Of a stretch of 64,000 nucleotides of DNA, positions 9,755-54,304 are shown in pieces. The translations under genes and the position numbers were made by a program. Within the stretch, counting starts at the first letter, position 1, and every line of letters begins with the position of its first letter. Under the pieces are notes generated by a model, which saw nothing but the letters and a program-made list of their open reading frames with translations, was not told the origin of the DNA and made no database searches. Source of the DNA: Acidimicrobiia bacterium. GTDB taxonomy: Bacteria; Actinomycetota; Acidimicrobiia; Spongiisociales; Spongiisociaceae. Location of the stretch: assembly GCA_965231815.1 (NCBI GenBank), contig OZ246890.1:1799469-1863468 (forward strand). The letters run 5' to 3'.

Positions 9755-9962
9755 CCCCGATTATTCATGGATGGAGGTTTGGGGGATGAGTGGAGTAGAA
9801 CCATATTCGCACCCTGACCAGGCAATACAGCTATCGGAGTTCCCCATTCGGGTCCGGTGTAGAGATTCACCTGTCGGGTGAACGGCGGGTTTCTCCTGAT
9901 ACTCGGGTTGAACAGGCGCTACATGCCTCGGTGTGTGGGAAACCTGAATAATCAGGGCTAGA
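9755..9962 (+). repeat. Interspersed repeat family B copy B1
   Basis: CCCCGATTATTCATGGATGGAGG ... GGTGTGTGGGAAACCTGAATAATCAGGGCTAG; near-identical copies at 43626 and 44975 and a reverse copy at 54099. Confidence 0.7.
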
Positions 9963-19215: not shown

Positions 19216-20157
19216 TTGATGAACCGGGTGGTTACCGCCCTTCGCGCCGGGATACGATCATCAACCACCGGGCTGTTCAGCCATGTCCCCTATCCGTTGC
19301 AAAATACCTTGGAGTACCAGGGAGATCACGGGGTGTGCGGTCCAGATTCGGCGTCGTGGCCGATCATCGGTGATGTTGCTGCGTTCATCGGCGGGATCCG
19401 TGCCTTGCTCGTGCAAAGCGCCCATCCTGAAGTGGTAGCCGGAGTCGCGGATCATTCCAACTATCGAGTGGATCCGTTAGGTCGTCTGTCCCGGACGGCG
19501 GCGTACGTCACCGCCACCACCTTCGGCGCCCTGCCTGAAGTGTGTGAGGCTATCGATCGGGTCAAGGTCGCGCACGCCGGCGTGGCGGGCAGGTCACATC
19601 GTGGGCGACCGTACGCGGCGTCCGTTCCCGCCCTCTCCGCCTGGGTTCACAACGTGCTTACGGATTCGTTCCTGGCGGCGTACCAGGCCTACGGCCCTCA
19701 ACCCCTCGCGACGGGCCAGGCAGACCGCTTCGTTCGTGAACAGGCCGTGATCGGTAGAATGCTCGATTCCCTTCCCGTTCCGGAGGATGCTCCCTCATTG
19801 AGTGCATGGGTGGAGGACCATCCCGACCTAGGCTCATCGCCGGGGATGGCGGCAACCGTGGAGTTCTTGAGGAATCCTCCGCTCGATCCGGTCCAGAAGG
19901 TGGGATACCGACTTCTCTATACGGGAGCGGTCGCGATACTCCCGGACCGGATCCGGCGAATCCTCGGACGGAAAGATCTTCCCGGATCCGCAACCGCCGC
20001 CCTGGTCACGGTCAGGTTCCTGAGATGGGCGATGGGTTCATCTCCGTCATGGAGGCTGGCGCTCATCAGAACGGGAAGAGAGGTTCCACCGGGCCTGTTC
20101 CGCAGGTCGGTTCCTCCGGCGATCGGTCGGGATGCCCGATTTCAGGGAGTTCCATGA
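19216..20157 (+). CDS. MpaB/DUF2236-family oxygenase-like protein
   Basis: Pattern resembles DUF2236 (IGDVAAFIGGIRALLVQSAHPEV). Confidence 0.6.
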   Translation: MMNRVVTALRAGIRSSTTGLFSHVPYPLQNTLEYQGDHGVCGPDSASWPIIGDVAAFIGGIRALLVQSAHPEVVAGVADHSNYRVDPLGRLSRTAAYVTATTFGALPEVCEAIDRVKVAHAGVAGRSHRGRPYAASVPALSAWVHNVLTDSFLAAYQAYGPQPLATGQADRFVREQAVIGRMLDSLPVPEDAPSLSAWVEDHPDLGSSPGMAATVEFLRNPPLDPVQKVGYRLLYTGAVAILPDRIRRILGRKDLPGSATAALVTVRFLRWAMGSSPSWRLALIRTGREVPPGLFRRSVPPAIGRDARFQGVP

Positions 20158-36455: not shown

Positions 36456-37775
36456 CTATCTCGACGGGGTCGGCAAGACATCGAAAACCGTCGGTTCTGA
36501 CACGTTCGCTTCCAGAGCGGTGAGAGCGGTTTCCACCACCCGCCGTCGATGCTCGAGTTCGTCGGCCTCGTCGAGGCTCGGATCGCCGAAGGGGTGGGTA
36601 ACGGCGTTGCCCTGGACGATCCGCAGCACTCCGACCGATTCGGCGAGCGGAACCAGCGCGGTGACCAAGGCGGCCGGGATACCCTGATTCTCGATTGACT
36701 TTGCCAGCGTAGACCCGCTACGCGTGCCCGTTCCTCAGGTAGAGCCCACGATCACCGCCTGCACCCCGTCGTCAATCAGAGAGCGTCCCATCTCGGCGCC
36801 TATCCGGGTCATGTCCCGAAGGGATCCCATATTGCCGGTGGTGCTCAGCAGGTCGCCATGCAGGGTAAAGCGGCCCTGTTCTTCCAGCGAGCGGGCTGCA
36901 TCGAGCGGAACCTGACGGTCGGGGTCGAGGTTGGCGAAACTGGTGTCGATGCCGCCGTGTACCGACTCGAACTCACCTTCCCTGAACCCATCCTTATCGT
37001 GGATCGGGTAGGCATACCACTTGGTAGCCCATCCCGAAGGCAGCCGGTCGGGGTTGCCGGTCGGAACGATCCCCGCTTCGGTCACCAGCGCCAGCCGGAA
37101 GGGCGCGCCCGCCACGATGGGGTCGGACGGCTCGGCCGGCCCGTACCGGGGAAGGGGCCATTCTGTCTCGTACGGCGCCCCGCGCATCTTGGCGAGCAGC
37201 ATCTCGATCGCCCTCGTTGACCCTCTAACGGATTCGAACGTGTTGCGCCGGAAGCCTTTGGTGAGGGTTCCCTCCTCCTGTGCGGCGCCGAGGCGCCGGC
37301 CGCGGCCCAGTTTGGCCACCAGCCGCGCGAGCCCCTGCAGTGCGGCCCCCATACCGGCGGCGGTCTCGGCGGTGGAAAGAACGGGAACCGAGGCCCGGTA
37401 CTCGACGGCGCCCGGGCTATCGGCATGGAGCCCGGTCACGGACGGTATTCCGAGCCGGTCGGTCACGGCTTTGCAGACTGCGCCGCAGGCAAGACCGTAC
37501 CTACCGGATCCGAATCCCGGACCCGCCACCACGATATGGGGCTCGAATCCGGCTATCAGGTCTACCACCTCGTCTACCGCGGCCTCCCCGCGCTCGGCCA
37601 TGTAGTTGTCGCCGCAGATAACCGTGCCCACGATCCGCTCGTCATCTTCCAGCAGGCGGTCCAGGCCCCTACCCGTACCTACCGGTCCCGGTTGAGAGAC
37701 CGGTCCGCTCCCGGCACGGTCCTCCCCGCCGACCCCACCGAAGAACTGGTTTAGATAGTGGACGATCCTGATCAT
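36456..37775 (-). CDS. grdB: Glycine/sarcosine/betaine reductase selenoprotein B family, with in-frame UGA (Sec) at 36735-36737
   Basis: Motifs flanking the UGA AVIVGST-U-GTGTRSG and downstream GIPAALVTALVP ... RIVQGNAVTHPFGDPSL are conserved; two listed ORFs (36735-37775, 36456-36668) are collinear through TGA. Confidence 0.8.
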
Positions 37776-37782
37776 GGTCCTA

Positions 37783-39117
37783 TCAGTACTCCTCGCCGCG
37801 AATGCATGTGTGTCCGAACTGGTGCGTGCTTGCCAGCACGACCGCTAGCGGGGCTTCGAAGGCCCCCGCAGGATCGTTCTCGATCTGGATCAGGCGTTCT
37901 CCGCCGATAACTCGCTCCACGGACTCGAAAAGGACAGTCTCCTCGTAGTTCCCGGTGCTAACTATGGCATCCGCTTCCGGTACGAAGTGGACGAAGCCCG
38001 ACTCTCCCGGATTGGCGGCCATCTCCATCGACAGCATCGTTGTCGCTACTCCGCGTCGTTCTAGATTCCGGCAAACCATCATGGCATCGACCGCCGGATG
38101 TCCTCCCCCGGCGTAGTTGATCAGCGCCCCTTCCGCTCCCATCATTATCGCCAGGTTGGAGGCATGGTTGGCAAGTCGTTCCTTGGCGGCCCGCGTGTCG
38201 CCGTTGGTGAACAGCACCACTCCCCGGAATTCGATGTCCTTACCGTGACGAGCGTACAGATCCTCGATGATGGCGTGGTTCTGCACCGTATAGGTCAGTT
38301 CCCTCATGCAGGCGATAGCGTTCCAGCCGCACACCAGCGCCCCGTCGAGCAACTCGTTCGGATGGATCGGTGTGGGGAGATGTGCGCTGCCACCGATTGC
38401 GCCGGCGCCGGGGGCGATCTCGCCATGCAGAAAGGGGATGGCAAGTTGGTAAAGGTAGACGACTGCAGGCAGGTCTCGCACCCCTGAAGGAGCCAGATCG
38501 AAGGTGTCTACCCGGTCGGGTGTCTGACCGAGGGTGGCGGACGCCAAGTGCCTGGCGGCCTTTAGGCCGGCCAACCTGACCGCCCGATTGTATTCCACCG
38601 CCTCCGGAGTTCCCTCGAAGATGTTGTCAGGCCGGTCGCCGCTCTCGAGAAGGGAGCGGGTCGGTTCGCACGACACCACCACGTTGATGAGTTCGGAGAA
38701 GGGAGAGTACCTGGCGGTGGGGCCCGCCATGTCGAAGATCGCCTCTCGCCAGTAGCGGGGCTCTCCCGGCACCGGACGCGCCGTCTCGACGACCGATACC
38801 CCCTTGAGAGCATAGGTGGCGCCGGACCCGACCGGTCGGGGGCCGGTAAGGAGGCCCGAGAAGTCGGCGCCTTCCGGATCCACCTTGATCCGCGGCTCGA
38901 CCGCGTCGATGGCGTTTATGACCCTTACCGGGTCTCCCGGTCTGACGATACTTACCGATACAGAAGCAAAGTTGGGGTCGTCGGCCAGTATTTCCTCAAG
39001 TGCGTCTATGTCGATGGTGAGCACCCCGCCGGCCAACTCCGTGTGGGAGCCTTCCCTGACCTCGGTGACCTGGAAGGAGCCGATATCCAGTACCTGGCGG
39101 AGCGGGCCCGAGTTCAC
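37783..39117 (-). CDS. grdE: Glycine reductase proprotein GrdE-like (PrdA/GrdE family)
   Basis: DGALVCGWNAIACMRELTYTVQNHAIIEDLYARHGKDIE follows the proprotein family pattern. Confidence 0.75.
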   Translation of the reverse strand: MNSGPLRQVLDIGSFQVTEVREGSHTELAGGVLTIDIDALEEILADDPNFASVSVSIVRPGDPVRVINAIDAVEPRIKVDPEGADFSGLLTGPRPVGSGATYALKGVSVVETARPVPGEPRYWREAIFDMAGPTARYSPFSELINVVVSCEPTRSLLESGDRPDNIFEGTPEAVEYNRAVRLAGLKAARHLASATLGQTPDRVDTFDLAPSGVRDLPAVVYLYQLAIPFLHGEIAPGAGAIGGSAHLPTPIHPNELLDGALVCGWNAIACMRELTYTVQNHAIIEDLYARHGKDIEFRGVVLFTNGDTRAAKERLANHASNLAIMMGAEGALINYAGGGHPAVDAMMVCRNLERRGVATTMLSMEMAANPGESGFVHFVPEADAIVSTGNYEETVLFESVERVIGGERLIQIENDPAGAFEAPLAVVLASTHQFGHTCIRGEEY

Positions 39118-39175: not shown

Positions 39176-40165
39176 TCATATAACCTGTGGCAGTCCGAGC
39201 ATCCGGCGTGCCTGAGCGGGGGTGGCGATCTCGCGGTTCATCTCTTCGGCGACGCGACGTATCCGGCTCACCAACTGCCCGTTGCCGCTGGCCTTTTCTC
39301 CCCGCCGGAAGTAGATGTTGTCTTCCAGTCCTACCCGCACATGGCCGCCGAGGAGGATTCCCAGGACGTTCATCGGGATCTGAAAGGGTCCGGTCCCGAT
39401 GACCGAGAAAAGGGCGCCGGACGGCAACTCGTTGATGAGCGACATGAGGTTGGCAGGGGTCGGGAAGGACGCCGTCTGCGCGCCGAGGACGAACTGGACC
39501 ATGTATGGAGGGGTGACATTCTCGTTGTATATGAGGTCTCGAAGTACCCAGTACTGGCCCGGGTCGTAGATCTCGAGTTCAGGCTTCATACCCCGTTCCA
39601 CGATTATGGACGCGTAGTGGTTGATCTCGCCGTAGGTTGTCCCGCTGCACATGTCGTATTCGATCGGCCCGCGGGGGTGCGGTAGGTGGGCGGGACGCTC
39701 CGGCATGGTGAAACTTGACACGAATGGACCGAGGTTGAGAGTCGCCACGTCGGGCGCCGGGTCGGAGAACAACGGGGAGTAGCGTTCTTCGGTGGTCAGA
39801 GTCGGACCACCACCGGTGCTGTTGTTGATTATCACGTCGGGGCACTGCTCGCGGATCATCCGGTTCACGCGCCCGTAGTCCTCCGGGTTCCCGCTGCACT
39901 GGCTCCAGTCCTGCGGGTCCCTGACGTGCACATGGATCTGTGAAGCTCCTGCTTCGTATGCCTGGCGCGCTTCCTCGGCTTGCTCCTCGGGTGTCTCCGG
40001 TAGGGCGGGATTCGACTCCTTGCCGTGGCCGCCTCCGCTTATGGCAGCGGTGATGATCAAGGGCGGAAACGCGCTACGGGCTGTTTTCCGCATCCAGAGA
40101 TACGGGTCACGAAAGTCCCAGGTTGCTTCGATTTCACCCATGTTGTCCCTTTTCGCGCCAATCAA
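39176..40165 (-). CDS. 3-keto-5-aminohexanoate cleavage enzyme family (BKACE/DUF849)
   Basis: PLIITAAISGG ... IHVHVRDP ... GLEDN TIM-barrel signature; start may be the internal Met at 40141. Confidence 0.7.
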   Translation of the reverse strand: MIGAKRDNMGEIEATWDFRDPYLWMRKTARSAFPPLIITAAISGGGHGKESNPALPETPEEQAEEARQAYEAGASQIHVHVRDPQDWSQCSGNPEDYGRVNRMIREQCPDVIINNSTGGGPTLTTEERYSPLFSDPAPDVATLNLGPFVSSFTMPERPAHLPHPRGPIEYDMCSGTTYGEINHYASIIVERGMKPELEIYDPGQYWVLRDLIYNENVTPPYMVQFVLGAQTASFPTPANLMSLINELPSGALFSVIGTGPFQIPMNVLGILLGGHVRVGLEDNIYFRRGEKASGNGQLVSRIRRVAEEMNREIATPAQARRMLGLPQVI

Positions 40166-40261: not shown

Positions 40262-40621
40262 CTAGGAGGCGAGTGGTTCCAGCTTGGACAGCAGGTCCGA
40301 GACGTGCGCCAGGTAGTCCTCGACGGTTTCGCCGGGCAGCCAGCCTTCATAGAGGTTGGTGTGTAGGGCGCCTGCCAGGCCGAACGCGGTCCGAATGTCC
40401 CGGTCTCCGGTCTCGTCCGCTAGGCGGTTGACCACGCGCCATAGCTGGTGATGTCCACCGTGGGGCCATCCTCGGGCCTCGGCGATGCTCTTGACCATCT
40501 GAGCAGCGGCGCCCTAGCCCTTCTCGGAGGCTTGCAGCAGGTCGCCCTCGGCTAGGTAGGTCCGGGCTCTGGCCAGAAACTCCCGTCCGGTAGTGTTGTA
40601 GTATCTTGTCTTAGTAGTCAT
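40262..40621 (-). pseudogene. HEPN-like small protein disrupted by an in-frame TAG (probable TGG to TAG nonsense mutation)
   Basis: Minus-strand reading MTTKTRYYNTTGREFLARARTYLAEGDLLQASEKG-TAG-GAAAQMVKSIAEARGWPHGGHH; both halves in one frame separated only by the stop at 40514-40516. Confidence 0.45.
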
Positions 40622-41063
40622 GGGGATATCATATCGTAATTGTGGGTAAATGAAGCAGCCGGGCGACGGTGTTTCTCAACAGGTCGGCCGTCTCGTCTTC
40701 AGCCACGACCAGCGCGCCATAGCGCTCCATGTCGAGCCGGTTGGGCGCGTGGTGAGGGAACCGGGAACCGCATGTCGGTGTTGATGATGGGGGTCATTCC
40801 GGTGAAGAAGTGAACCGGGATGTCGAGTTTCCAAGGCCTTCTCGTAGATAGGATCGAGTCTACGGTCACTCTTGTGGTGCTCGCCGCGGCAGTCATCGAC
40901 CCGGAGCGCACCCGCCGCTGATCACGGGAACCAGTCGCATGGCGACCGTCCGGCGATTCGAGACCGGGCCGCACCTCGGTTGCGACTACCCTCCATACTT
41001 CGAGAAAATATGCGGACCCCCGTTGTGCTGCGGGTCCGGTCAGCCTGGAGACTGCAAGAGTTT

Positions 41064-42488
41064 ATGCGGGAACCCGCCATCCTCAATAGCGCCTACGCGC
41101 TGGCCCACGCTCCCGAACTGGTGCGTTATGGATCGAAACCCGTTCGCGAGATCCGTCGTGATCCGTCTCTCCTGCCGTCGATGACCGAGGGGCTGCGGCC
41201 CTGGAATGAGGTGATCGGGTATCCACCCAACCAGGTTTTCATCGGCAATCTGCAACCTCGCGACCTTGTTTCGATCCCTCGACCCTGGTACAGGAACCGG
41301 GTCGAGCATGCCGTCCCTTCCGGGCCTTTCGGGCGGATGATCACCCAAGCCGCGCTCTACGGGCTCATGAAGTTGTGTGATGACTTCGATCTGTTGACTA
41401 TCGACGAGAAGCTTGCCGAACAGGCCAGGCTGGAACTCATCGAGTTCGATCACCGTAGGGACCGGATCGTCGGCGCCGATCCGGCCGAGTTGAAGGAACT
41501 CCTCGACGGGGGTAGCGGTCTTCCGCTCTACCACGGCACTCGCGTCGCGGGTTTCATTCGTACGGCCCATGAACAGGACGCCTCGCTGGCGGCATCGGTC
41601 TTGCTCGAGAACCTGGCGTGCAAGGCGACCGCGGTCCTAGCGGTTTCCGATCTTCTGAGGTACGGCAGCCTTGCGCCCTCTCGGGTCGATTACCTGTTCA
41701 ACAGCGGTGAGGAGGCGGTCGGAGACCGCTACCAGCGGGGGGGCGGGAGCCTCTCGAAGGCGATCGGCGAAGTGGTGGGATGCGTGAACGCCACCGGGTC
41801 CGACCTCAAGGCGTTCTGTGCCGCTCCCGTCCACGCCCTTATCGCGAGCGGGGCGATGGTTGCCGCGGGACTCTACGATCACGTCGTGGTCCTCGGCGGC
41901 GGCTCGCTGGCCAAACTAGGTATGAAGTTCGCAGCCCACCTTCGCAACGGGGTACCGGTCATGGAGGACTGTCTGGCTTCCATGGCTTTCCTGGTAGGAC
42001 TCGCCGACGGAGACGCAATGCGGTTGCGGCTCGACCTGACGGGCAAGCATCCGATCGGCGCCGGGTCGTCCCCCCGCGCGGTATACGAGGCGTTGGTGAT
42101 CGAACCGTTGGCCAGGGTCGGTCTTGGCATCACCGACGTCGACAGGTACGCGGTGGAGATGCATAACCCGGAGATCACCGAACCGGGAGGGAGCGGCGAC
42201 GTTCCCAGAACCAACTACCGTACTCTCGGAGCGATGGCGGTGCTGCAGGGAGAGATCGGGAGAAGCGACATCAATCGTTTCGTGGCTGAACACGGAATGC
42301 CGGGCTTCGCTCCCACACAAGGCCACATTCCCGCCGGAGTACCCTATCTGGGCCATGCTCAGCAGGCTATGGATCGGCAGGAACTGGACAGGGCGATGAT
42401 CGTCGCCAAGGGAAGCCTGTTCCTGGGACGGATGACGCAGTTGGTGGACGGGGTCTCTTTCGTGGTTGAAAAGGAACGCCGTCCGTGA
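41064..42488 (+). CDS. GrdC-like protein (glycine reductase protein C component, PlsX/FA_synthesis fold), tentative
   Basis: ~475 aa, HVVVLGGGSLAKLGMKF pattern; sits directly upstream of grdA; start uncertain (ORF begins at 40872). Confidence 0.45.
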   Translation: MREPAILNSAYALAHAPELVRYGSKPVREIRRDPSLLPSMTEGLRPWNEVIGYPPNQVFIGNLQPRDLVSIPRPWYRNRVEHAVPSGPFGRMITQAALYGLMKLCDDFDLLTIDEKLAEQARLELIEFDHRRDRIVGADPAELKELLDGGSGLPLYHGTRVAGFIRTAHEQDASLAASVLLENLACKATAVLAVSDLLRYGSLAPSRVDYLFNSGEEAVGDRYQRGGGSLSKAIGEVVGCVNATGSDLKAFCAAPVHALIASGAMVAAGLYDHVVVLGGGSLAKLGMKFAAHLRNGVPVMEDCLASMAFLVGLADGDAMRLRLDLTGKHPIGAGSSPRAVYEALVIEPLARVGLGITDVDRYAVEMHNPEITEPGGSGDVPRTNYRTLGAMAVLQGEIGRSDINRFVAEHGMPGFAPTQGHIPAGVPYLGHAQQAMDRQELDRAMIVAKGSLFLGRMTQLVDGVSFVVEKERRP

Positions 42489-42526
42489 AGGCCGTAACGA
42501 CCGATGAGATGAAAGGAGTCCGACAC

Positions 42527-42979
42527 ATGGACTTGAAGGGCAAGAGCGTGGTGGCGATCGGTGAGCGGGAGGGGGTCAACGGACCCAGCCTCAAGCTGCT
42601 GGCCGAATCCGCCGGCGCCGATGTGGTGTTCAGCGTTACCCAGTGCTTCGTCTGAACGGCGGGGGGCGCCATGGACCTGGAGGATCAGGCGAACGTCAAC
42701 CGCCTGGCCGAGACCTCCGTCGGTGACGAGATGGTCGTGTTGCTCGGGCAACCGGACGCCAACAGCGCCGGTCTCTTCGCAGAGACGGTAACGAGTGGCG
42801 ATCCGACCTGGGCTGGTCCTTTGGCCGGAGTCCCGTTGGGACTTCCTGTTTATCACATACTGGAGCCGGAGATCAAAGAACAGATCGATGAAGAACTCTA
42901 TGACGAGCACGTTGGCCTGATGGAGTTGTCGGCCGATGTGGATGAGATAATCCACTGGGTGGCGATCTGCAGAGATTGA
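42527..42979 (+). CDS. grdA: Glycine reductase complex selenoprotein A, in-frame UGA (Sec) at 42653-42655
   Basis: SD AAAGGAG 8 nt upstream of the ATG; MDLKGKSVVAIGEREGVNGPS ... VVFSVTQCFV-U-TAGGAMDLEDQ ... GDPTWAGPLAGVPLGLPVYHILEPE. Confidence 0.85.
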
Positions 42980-43130
42980 GACCGTACTTCCTTCGATGCT
43001 CCGGCCCGCCTGCCCCGGCGTAGGCAGGGCAGCAGGCTAAGTGCCTTACCCGGCCCCGGGTTCCGGTGCCCGAACGTGTGCGGGACCCGCGGAGGATGAT
43101 CGAAGCTGTATTACCTGGTCAGGACGTGAC

Positions 43131-43625: not shown

Positions 43626-43832
43626 GCCCGATTATTCATGGATGGAGGTTTGGAGGATGAGTGGAGTAGACCATATTCGCGCCCTGACCAGGCAATACAG
43701 CTATCGGCGTTTCCCATCCCGGTCCTATTTAGAGATTCACCTATCGGGTGAACGGTGGGTAGCCCCCCAAAACTCGGGTGGAACTGGCGTAACATGCCTC
43801 GGTGTGTGGGAAACCTGAATAATCAGGGCTAG
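43626..43832 (+). repeat. Interspersed repeat family B copy B2
   Basis: Full-length B copy just downstream of the polyprenyl synthase gene. Confidence 0.7.
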
Positions 43833-43887: not shown

Positions 43888-44883
43888 TCATCCGCTCGCC
43901 TGGTGGACCCGGTCGACCAGATAGGCGCCCATAGTCCGCAGCACGGAACGGGCGGTGACGTCAGGTAGGGAATCGATTGCTTCCGAGGCGGTATCGAGGC
44001 GCCGAACACACTGCTCCAGCACCCTGTCGATGTAACCACCCTCCCGGACCAGACCGATTACTTCTTCGACTGCACGATCCGAGTACGGCACGCCTTCCTC
44101 TAGGAGCTCGCGGACTCGGGCCCCGGTCGGACCTTCCAAGGCATAGAGAACCGGAAGGGTGTAGACCCCTTGACGAATGTCGCTTCCGGCGGGTTTGCCG
44201 ATTTGTTCATCGGTGGCTACCAGGTCGAGCGCATCGTCGGTTATCTGGAAGACCATTCCCAATTCCCAGGTGGCGGTTGATAGGGCCTCCACGAACTCCC
44301 GTGGAGCGTCGGCGGCGATCGCTCCCATCCGCGCGGCGGTCCTGATCAGGCTCGCGGTCTTGCCCTCCATGATCCGGTAGTGCTCGGCAGGGCCGTGTGC
44401 CAGGTCTCCGGTCAGGTGCAGCTCGAGTGCTTGTCCCTCCACTAGTTCCGTGTAGGTCCGCGCCAATAGCGCGACCGTCTCCAGGCCCAGGGTATCCGCT
44501 GCGAGCTCGGAGGCCTTGGCGATGAGGAAGTCTCCGGCCAGGATGGCCTGGGAGTTCTTCCATCTAACGTTCACCGAGAGGGTTCCCCGCCGGGTCTCAG
44601 CCTCGTCTATCACGTCATCGTGGTACAGCGATCCGACATGGATGAGTTCAACCGCCGCTCCGGCATCGACCAAGCGGTGGTCGTGGGAGGGTCCGAATTC
44701 CCCTGCGAGTTGGGTAAGGATAGGTCGAAAGCGTTTCCCGCCCGCCACCAGCAAGTGTTGGGTGATCTCGGTCAGGTAGGGATCGCCGGCGGCCGACACC
44801 TCTAGGAGGCGTTCCTCGACCAGTCCGATTCGATCCCACACCTCGGGTAGGTCGATAAGGTCCGGGAGAGTCAGGGTGGCCAT
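43888..44883 (-). CDS. Polyprenyl (geranylgeranyl/farnesyl) diphosphate synthase
   Basis: First Asp-rich motif LYHDDVID and second QITDDALD; start at MATLTLPDL; the listed ORF extension to 45189 runs into repeat B3. Confidence 0.8.
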   Translation of the reverse strand: MATLTLPDLIDLPEVWDRIGLVEERLLEVSAAGDPYLTEITQHLLVAGGKRFRPILTQLAGEFGPSHDHRLVDAGAAVELIHVGSLYHDDVIDEAETRRGTLSVNVRWKNSQAILAGDFLIAKASELAADTLGLETVALLARTYTELVEGQALELHLTGDLAHGPAEHYRIMEGKTASLIRTAARMGAIAADAPREFVEALSTATWELGMVFQITDDALDLVATDEQIGKPAGSDIRQGVYTLPVLYALEGPTGARVRELLEEGVPYSDRAVEEVIGLVREGGYIDRVLEQCVRRLDTASEAIDSLPDVTARSVLRTMGAYLVDRVHQASG

Positions 44884-44974
44884 TTCGTTTGCTCCGCCTC
44901 GGGAAAAGGTCTTCCCTATGCTAAAGACATGTGCATTGATCGCCACCATCGTCGGGTCGATCCACTTTGGCGTA

Positions 44975-45184
44975 ACCCCTATTTTTGATGGATGGGGGTT
45001 TGGGTATGGGTGGAGGAAGCCACAATAGCGTCCTGACCAGGCAATACACCTATCGGCGTTTCCCGTCCCGGTCCGGTGTGGAGATGCACCCGCCGGGTGA
45101 AACCGGTCGGTTCCTACTAAATAATCAGGTTGAACCGGCGATACATGCCGCGGTGTGTGGGAAACCCGAACGATCAGGGTTAAA
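44975..45184 (+). repeat. Interspersed repeat family B copy B3
   Basis: Full-length B copy between the polyprenyl synthase start and clpC. Confidence 0.7.
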
Positions 45185-45262
45185 GTCACTAATAGGAATC
45201 AGGAGGGCTTAAGCTTGTATCCTCGGAGGGGTAGAGTCATGGGTCCGGGGAGGTGTTAGGTA

Positions 45263-54098: not shown

Positions 54099-54304
54099 CT
54101 AGCCCTGATTATTCAGGTTTCCCGCACACCGAGGCATGTAACACCAGTTCCAACCCGAGTATACGGCGAAACCCACCATTCACCCGGAGGTGAATCTCTG
54201 CACCGGCCCGGGATGGGAGACACCGATAGTTGTATTGCCTGGTCAGGGGCGTGATTACGGCGTAATCGACTCATCTGTCAAACCCCCATCCATGAATAAT
54301 CGGG
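54099..54304 (-). repeat. Interspersed repeat family B copy B4 (reverse orientation)
   Basis: CTAGCCCTGATTATTCAGGTTTCCCGCACACCGAGGCATG ... CCATCCATGAATAATCGGGG. Confidence 0.7.

Follow-up and report, generated by a model that had tools for sequence, protein, structure and literature searches.

Protein B of glycine reductase, which pairs the GrdB selenoprotein with the GrdE proprotein and is described from Clostridium sticklandii, Peptoclostridium acidaminophilum and C. difficile, belongs to the GrdB family, in which an in-frame UGA accompanied by a selenocysteine insertion sequence (SECIS) element is a well-known phenomenon and a textbook case. Here, we analyze a member of this family found in a stretch of 64,000 nucleotides (nt), referred to below as the window, of contig OZ246890.1 (positions 1,799,469 to 1,863,468 of the forward strand; assembly GCA_965231815.1) from an Acidimicrobiia bacterium. 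The gene, hereafter GrdB-like, lies on the minus strand at 36456-37775 and is interrupted by an in-frame UGA. Taken as a whole, the locus is very probably best explained as encoding a GrdB-like selenoprotein that is decoded through selenocysteine (Sec) with the help of a SECIS element, in an operon for a glycine reductase-type (Grd-type) complex that also includes a β-keto acid cleavage enzyme (BKACE).

The resemblance to glycine reductase protein B extends from the protein to the mRNA and the gene order: the same Pfam/TIGR family is matched over the full length, Sec would occupy the same ST-U-G position, the SECIS helix falls at the same nucleotides, and a GrdE-family gene lies immediately upstream, with GrdA and GrdC in the same cluster. 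However, the two proteins share ~41-46% identity, the profile score is below the equivalog cut-off, the motif after Sec is UxxGxxS, the partner subunit has Asn in place of Cys242, and a BKACE gene leads the operon; moreover, neither GrdD nor TrxA or TrxB is adjacent and the host is a high-GC actinobacterium.

Two traits of the described systems are relevant to this comparison. The first is the redox motif UxxC or UxxCxxC after Sec, regarded as a family trait (PMC9312934; PMC6778437); UxxCxxC is held to be conserved in GrdB, GrdF and GrdH and to shield Sec from oxidation (PMC6778437, PMC10838667), and a GrdB homologue without it was regarded in one paper as a likely pseudogene (PMC6778437). The second is Cys242 of the partner subunit, on which formation of the glycine-binding pyruvoyl group depends (PMC10838667). 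In betaine reductase (GrdH/GrdI), GrdI is likewise not a pyruvoyl proprotein (PMC10838667), whereas GrdH reportedly keeps UxxCxxC (PMC6778437), unlike the GrdB-like protein. The only described Grd-type system that has lost both CxxC and the processing cysteines of the partner is the fluoroacetate reductase of Cloacibacillus porcorum, in which FarB lacks the former and FarE the latter (PMC10838667).

The In-Frame UGA and the Reading Frame Downstream

The GrdB-like gene starts with an ATG at 37775, runs into an in-frame TGA at 36737-36735, continues for 92 further codons and ends at a TAG (36458-36456). Its 439 codons, with that of Sec347 included, specify a read-through product of 439 amino acids with the motif ...VIVGST-U-GTGTRSGSTLAK... 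around the UGA. A first-pass annotation of this DNA had placed the open reading frame (ORF), the TGA, the stop and a SECIS-like hairpin at the coordinates given in this paper, and had proposed read-through of the UGA in a selenoprotein B gene.

For profile searches, the TGA position in the read-through protein was replaced by Cys. The protein scored 381.7 bits against PF07355 (Pfam GRDB) and 425 bits, with a cut-off of 65.45, against TIGR01918, the NCBIfam model for the 'glycine/betaine/sarcosine/D-proline family reductase selenoprotein B', which confirms the family membership assigned in the first pass. Since the TIGR01918 match covers model positions 1-431 of 431, the alignment spans the TGA into the downstream segment, which had been expected to align to the GrdB C-terminus and does so up to the last position of the model. 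A sequence search of the PDB returned no solved relative of this protein.

Public databases present most homologues in a shortened form. The search retrieved 1863 homologues. Almost every one of the 120 top-ranked aligns to 79% of the query with a length of 345-353 amino acids, which shows that gene callers cut these proteins off at the TGA codon; just two of the 120 span the whole query, and one of them, P0064, carries Cys in place of Sec. Even the NCBI entries of close relatives, though named 'selenoprotein B [Acidimicrobiia bacterium]', are 346 amino acids long. At the nucleotide level the codon is constant, TGA being present at 80 of 80 genome loci, at 19 of 19 metagenome loci and at the loci fetched for close relatives; across 97 distinct homologous sequences of 48 nt, drawn from many phyla, the three columns of the TGA are invariant.

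The sequence beyond the TGA behaves as coding sequence. In the 75 codons that follow it, 31 synonymous and 7 non-synonymous differences separate the window from relative L082, and 29 and 6, respectively, separate it from L083; in comparisons with relatives, constraint on these codons is equal to or stronger than that on the 100 codons before the TGA. Substitution patterns of this kind indicate purifying selection on the frame beyond the TGA. The proposed read-through is thus upheld by the TGA kept in 97 of 97 sequences, the profile match across it and the purifying selection after it, and decoding of the UGA at 36735-36737 as Sec347, within the motif ST-U-GTGTRSG, is strongly supported by comparative sequence evidence.

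A Hairpin at the Position of a Bacterial SECIS

A bacterial SECIS is expected to be a structurally conserved stem-loop that follows directly 3′ of the Sec UGA (PMC9312934). In the GrdB-like mRNA the hairpin GCGUAG-CGGGU-CUACGC (36707-36723, minus strand) starts 12 nt 3′ of the UGA, and its stem pairs 36723-36718 with 36712-36707 around the loop CGGGU (36717-36713). In the numbering used below, which counts from the U of the UGA, the core conserved in the family is formed by nt 16-20 and 26-30.

A first line of evidence comes from synonymous sites. When codon identity at identical residues was compared among 15 relatives with 46-92% protein identity, it was 0.51 over the whole gene and rose to 0.86 at codons 351-356, while codons 348-350 and those from 357 onward vary freely, with no synonymous constraint. 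The constrained codons (ACG CGT AGC GGG TCT ACG) are four- to six-fold degenerate, and two of them, CGT and TCT, are expected to be rare in a genome of 61% GC.

Covariation within the alignment of 97 sequences supports the same element. Pairing is possible in 97.9% of cells of the helix 16-20/26-30, as against 88.0 ± 0.8% in shuffled alignments and 17-81% in registers obtained by sliding the helix; 33 cells show double changes where shuffles give 7.2, and none of 500 shuffles matches the covariation score. Compensatory changes affect three of the five helix pairs, namely 16:30 (CG/AU), 18:28 (UA in 88 sequences, CG in 5 and AU in 2) and 19:27 (UA in 70, AU in 24 and GC in 1). RNAalifold independently predicts pairs 17-20/26-29. 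In the loop, C21, G22 and G23 never vary, and conserved G residues in the apical loop some 20-25 nt from the UGA are a further mark of a bacterial SECIS.

Other observations weigh against the hairpin as a SECIS. The 61-nt fold has a z-score of -1.29, and in a ranking of 42-nt windows from this GC-rich gene the one that follows the UGA falls at the 59th percentile; across the family, fold stability shows only a modest enrichment (median percentile 0.23). Folding energy was therefore dropped as evidence, and the synonymous-site and covariation tests were used instead. The hairpin at 36723-36707, for which the first-pass annotation had proposed RNA folding as a check, is unremarkable by its stability alone. 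Rfam gave nothing at gathering thresholds, and no SECIS model matched at E<=10 around either UGA of the window considered here (that of the GrdB-like gene and that of GrdA, described below); Rfam may hold no model for SECIS elements of the GrdB-like class. Furthermore, pairs 18:28 and 19:27 are broken in L088 and L112, which need a shifted alternative hairpin. This alternative, AGCG-GGUCUA-CGCU, which has a bulged U18 and resembles fdhF, fits L001, L088 and L112, and was not adopted as the main model because the family-wide covariation backs the register GCGUAG-CGGGU-CUACGC proposed in the first pass.

On balance, synonymous-site conservation, covariation and the RNAalifold prediction bear out the SECIS-like hairpin just downstream of the UGA, and the comparative data strongly support a short mRNA hairpin, 12-28 nt 3′ of the UGA, that would direct Sec decoding like a bacterial SECIS.

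A point of comparison outside the family is the SECIS of E. coli fdhF, whose loop and bulged U17 are determinants for SelB; the fdhF sequence used was found with 100% identity in 5413 genomes. In both cases the hairpin follows the UGA closely and is itself part of the coding sequence, and the GGUC loop of fdhF (nt 22-25) has a counterpart in the G-rich apical loop of the GrdB-like element (nt 21-25). In contrast, the GrdB-like stem is shorter (5-6 bp) and unrelated in sequence, and the covarying register has no obvious bulged U.

The hairpin also ties the RNA to the protein. In the alignment of the 48 nt from 97 homologues, stem nt 19 belongs to the codon for the second Cys in the UxxCxxC motif, which is UGC in the classic form and AGC (Ser) in the GrdB-like clade. 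This change from Cys to Ser at nt 19 is always paired with a change from A to U at nt 27 (GCA to GCU or UCU), which is synonymous where the residue remains Ala and yields a Ser codon in the GrdB-like clade; in the window the coupled positions are 36716-36720 and 36710-36712 (minus strand). Given the coupling of nt 19 with nt 27, the conserved peptide 'TR[CS]G[AS]T' is partly an RNA constraint.

Redox Motif, Partner Subunit and Place in the GrdB Family

Family membership does not place the gene in any described subfamily. The redox motif after Sec is UxxGxxS (U-GT-G-TR-S-G) rather than UxxC or UxxCxxC, and this variant is present in 34 of the loci collected. The partner, a subunit of the GrdE/GrdG/GrdI family, is encoded on the minus strand at 37783-39117, 7 nt upstream of the GrdB-like gene (PF09338, 321 bits), and scores below the GrdG and FarE cut-offs. 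It has Asn in the column of the pyruvoyl-forming Cys242, reading CGW-N-AIAC where C. difficile GrdE reads SGN-C242-VSAC. Motif and partner vary together: the Cys242 site is found in the partner at 55 of 56 UxxCxxC loci, at none of 24 UxxGxxS loci and at none of six UxxGxxC loci.

Could the gene be an orthologue of betaine reductase GrdH/GrdI or of fluoroacetate reductase FarB/FarE? An unprocessed partner is shared with GrdI and FarE and the loss of CxxC with FarB (PMC10838667), and the neighbourhood of the operon in some relatives suggests quaternary-amine metabolism. Nevertheless, the GrdH model NF040795 gives 369.8 against a cut-off of 775, the lowest score of the three substrate-specific models, and the FarE model NF053623 gives 138 against 675 for the partner; UxxCxxC is reported to be kept in GrdH (PMC6778437). 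The window partner differs from FarE in keeping the second Cys (AIAC), in phylum and in gene context. In a neighbour-joining tree, the BKACE-linked GrdB-like sequences form one clade, apart from all other sampled groups. Orthology with either system is, on this evidence, improbable.

A canonical glycine reductase (GrdB/GrdE) serving Stickland-type or reductive-glycine metabolism is less probable still. GrdA and GrdC in the cluster, the high overall homology and the GCV_T genes near some relatives would fit such an enzyme; against it stand the score of 404.7 with the GrdB equivalog TIGR01917 (cut-off 602.2), the partner without Cys242, the lack of UxxCxxC and the lack of a nearby GrdD. Four of the six blocks of the published GrdB motif (PMC9751293) fail in the window protein, which reads GPGFGSGRYG, VHGGIDT, RQVPLD and TTGNMGSL, while C. 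difficile GrdB, used as a positive control, passes. GrdF does not fit either, as NF040794 gives 427 against a cut-off of 800 and the published GrdF motif (PMC9751293) lacks its IHGGYDR and TTGTGT blocks here.

Comparison with GrdB, GrdF and GrdH thus holds at the level of the family and falls below all three NCBIfam cut-offs. Likewise, of the GrdB C-terminal pattern proposed in the first pass, the alignment to the end of the family model stands, but the protein is not GrdB proper, and the substitutions of Cys by Gly and Ser that had been noted there mark a separate clade. Judged by its sequence, the GrdB-like gene is an uncharacterised branch and not canonical GrdB, GrdF or GrdH.

Other Ways of Reading the UGA

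Translation of the UGA by means other than Sec, either through near-cognate insertion of Trp or Cys or through a reassigned code, would have in its favour that no selA, selB, selD or tRNA-Sec was found within the 64-kb window, a result that also counts against Sec decoding, and that P0116 has Trp at the site. The genetic code, however, does not appear to be reassigned, because TGA is the true stop of 26 of the 41 Pfam-supported ORFs in the window and is their commonest stop. The site corresponds to the catalytic Sec of the family and is Cys in the Cys-form homologues, a covarying hairpin occupies the SECIS position, and GrdA, with a classic CxxU, is encoded in the same cluster. Non-Sec read-through therefore has very little probability. 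The entry P0116, annotated as 'betaine reductase' by JGI, carries the same GTGTRSG motif, with Trp written at the Sec position; this Trp is probably an artefact of gene calling with a code in which TGA means Trp.

A pseudogene, a sequencing error or plain termination, with a 346-amino acid protein and a separate or meaningless downstream ORF (TTG at 36668), would agree with the public annotations that end there and with the published view of one GrdB homologue without UxxCxxC (PMC6778437), but is effectively excluded by conservation, given that the TGA is retained across phyla, that changes in the tail, including the 22 codons from TGA to TTG, are mainly synonymous, that the family profile aligns to its end, and that the clade is kept from 92% to 46% identity with synteny intact.

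The BKACE Operon and Its Surroundings

The minus-strand genes from 40141 to 36456 are an operon of BKACE, GrdE-like and GrdB-like genes, with intergenic gaps of 58 nt between the first two and 7 nt between the last two. The BKACE gene (39176-40141) probably starts with the ATG at 40141, giving a protein of 321 amino acids as in relatives. The protein matches PF05853 over the full length (276 bits), has relatives of solved structure (PDB 2y7d and 3lot) and shows a similarity of ~1e-45 to Kce 2y7d; it shares full-length PF05853 with Kce and the dehydrocarnitine cleavage enzyme, but remains below every NCBIfam equivalog cut-off of the family.

GrdC and GrdA are transcribed divergently from this operon. 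The GrdC gene (reductase complex component C, beta subunit; 41064-42488, plus strand) scores 590.8 bits against NF040746, with a cut-off of 450, and encodes 474 amino acids, the same length as in L081. The gene for selenoprotein A, GrdA (42527-42979, plus strand), has its own in-frame UGA at 42653-42655, ~5 kb from the TGA of the GrdB-like gene, in the classic CxxU context QCFV-U-TAGGAMD, and on read-through matches PF04723 from position 1 to 144 of 147. A possible hairpin, CCUG-GAGGAU-CAGG, lies ~20 nt 3′ of this UGA; RNAalifold on 59 grdA sequences yielded no convincing consensus helix.

On the other side, two tandem Amidohydro_2 genes (PF04909; 34599-36435, plus strand) are convergent with the GrdB-like gene, and both are found with 82-98% identity in L001, L081, L083, L086, L091 and L109 and with 69-73% identity in L112. 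The whole cluster is flanked by lysS and clpC, within a stretch of housekeeping genes typical of actinobacteria that has the order tilS-hpt-ftsH-folP-folK-panC-coaX-lysS ... clpC-disA-ispD-cysS.

The triad of BKACE, GrdE-like and GrdB-like genes is invariant in 17 relatives with 46-92% GrdB-like identity and differing genomic settings, the most distant being a metagenome-assembled genome (MAG) of the Planctomycetaceae (46%). Frequent neighbours in these relatives are the Amidohydro_2 pair, an Amidohydro_1/3 gene and genes for a family-III (CaiB-type) CoA-transferase, a choline sulfatase, GCV_T and a binding protein of the NMT1 type; in L111, Rieske, SDR and amine-oxidase genes lie directly upstream. 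At two loci with ~59% identity, L088 (6352-11703) and L089 (1-5428), the operon adjoins MttB/MtmB methyltransferases and corrinoid proteins, with a pterin-binding methyltransferase and a RACo activase nearby. The MttB/MtmB neighbours suggest a methylamine or a quaternary amine as substrate or product.

GrdD had no match in the window, where the region 40872-43000 has GrdC without GrdD, or in the flanks of any UGTGTRSG locus. GrdC without GrdD occurs also in L002, L058, L071, L088, L111 and L112, whereas in most classic Firmicutes-type loci GrdD directly follows GrdC. Either grdD is located elsewhere in the genome or the last step, the formation of acetyl-phosphate, differs. The idea that BKACE stands in for GrdD was set aside because UGTGTRSG loci without BKACE, in Dehalococcoidia and Thermodesulfobacteriota, also lack GrdD.

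Between the BKACE and GrdC genes lies a PaREP1-family gene (PF05942; 40262-40621, minus strand) with a TAG at 40514-40516, where L081, a 92%-identical relative, has TGG (Trp); the TAG is probably a nonsense mutation that makes the gene a pseudogene, or else a base error. PaREP1 genes are found near the cluster in L109 and L110 as well.

A Proposed Function

By homology, the GrdB-like and GrdE-like subunits would together form the substrate-specific 'protein B' of a glycine reductase-type complex, in which Sec347 would attack the α-carbon of a substrate of the type X-CH2-COO-, displacing X. The carboxymethyl group would then pass to the Sec of GrdA and be reduced by thioredoxin-derived electrons, and the acetyl unit would be released through GrdC. 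Because the partner is devoid of the pyruvoyl-forming Cys and the selenoprotein carries UxxGxxS, the leaving group of the substrate probably requires no activation by a Schiff base; the unprocessed partner, as in GrdI, agrees with a leaving group that is already formed in the substrate. The function most likely, to go by these sequence features, is that of a thioredoxin- and GrdA-dependent reductase acting on a substrate for which no Schiff base is required.

Within this frame, a betaine-type quaternary amine is a tentative candidate for the substrate, for example glycine betaine or the betainyl-CoA that BKACE could produce from a carnitine-like β-keto acid. BKACE is known to convert dehydrocarnitine and acetyl-CoA into betainyl-CoA and acetoacetate (PMC9321204); the acetyl-CoA consumed in this reaction could be restored from the acetyl unit that the reductase yields. 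A broader proposal is more doubtful: the triad with GrdA and GrdC, in the absence of GrdD, might constitute an unrecognised selenium-dependent pathway of O2-exposed, sponge-associated Acidimicrobiia and a few other phyla, in which BKACE would make betainyl-CoA or betaine from a β-keto acid derived from carnitine and the selenoenzyme would cleave it reductively to trimethylamine and an acetyl unit. In such a pathway, the acetyl unit released by a pyruvoyl-independent and CxxC-free selenoenzyme would regenerate the acetyl-CoA spent by BKACE.

The host and its habitat bear on this proposal. A cytochrome P450 gene (54333-55604, minus strand) and an MpaB/Lcp-type oxygenase domain (19216-20157, plus strand) in the window suggest an O2-using host. 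L001 is the MAG RHO1_bin_3, and L090 and L091 come from GenBank MKWU, a metagenome of the sponge Aplysina aerophoba, in which Acidimicrobiia bins belong to a guild enriched in 'carnitine metabolism' COGs (PMC5649159). A sponge survey found no grdH in Aplysina aerophoba (PMC9999580), and a divergent clade with truncated annotation would escape a survey based on grdH.

A number of points speak against these functional proposals. The P450 hints at an O2-using host, whereas the characterised Grd systems are those of strict anaerobes, and neither GrdD nor thioredoxin or thioredoxin reductase was found within the window. The proposal of a betaine-type substrate comes from gene neighbourhood, yet near the cluster no gene for carnitine dehydrogenase was seen, the GrdH profile scores below those of GrdB and GrdF, and BKACE enzymes act on many β-keto acids.

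A Dispersed Repeat in the Window

The window also contains a dispersed intergenic repeat of ~185 nt, present as direct copies with 76-79% identity at 43647-43831 and 44996-45182. The copies flank the polyprenyl synthase gene proper (374 amino acids as called in L081), and the second of them overlaps the 5′ end of a 433-amino acid ORF (43888-45189). A 21-nt core of the repeat, CCCTGACCAGGCAATACAGCT, occurs five times in the window against zero expected, being found also at 9812-9832 (plus strand), 43104-43124 and 54228-54248 (both minus strand). The repeat has no match in Rfam and its fold is unexceptional (z = 0.15).

Significance

The literature searched holds no paper with both BKACE and selenoprotein B, and publications on Acidimicrobiia with glycine reductase and on Dehalococcoidia give no description of the BKACE-linked clade. 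As far as this search shows, therefore, a branch tied to BKACE that has neither UxxCxxC nor a pyruvoyl partner, from apparently O2-using Acidimicrobiia, is undescribed. A practical consequence concerns annotation, since the public orthologues stop short at 346 amino acids, even where NCBI calls them 'selenoprotein B'. At the level of the mRNA, the locus offers a coupled change of protein and RNA, in which the Cys-to-Ser codon in the SECIS stem is matched on the opposite strand of the helix.

For the family, the combination of a Cys-less Sec motif with a non-pyruvoyl partner contradicts the view of UxxCxxC as required. The constant linkage to BKACE bears on the substrate, possibly quaternary amines in sponge symbionts, and the pathway proposed above, if true, would represent a source of trimethylamine overlooked by grdH-based surveys.

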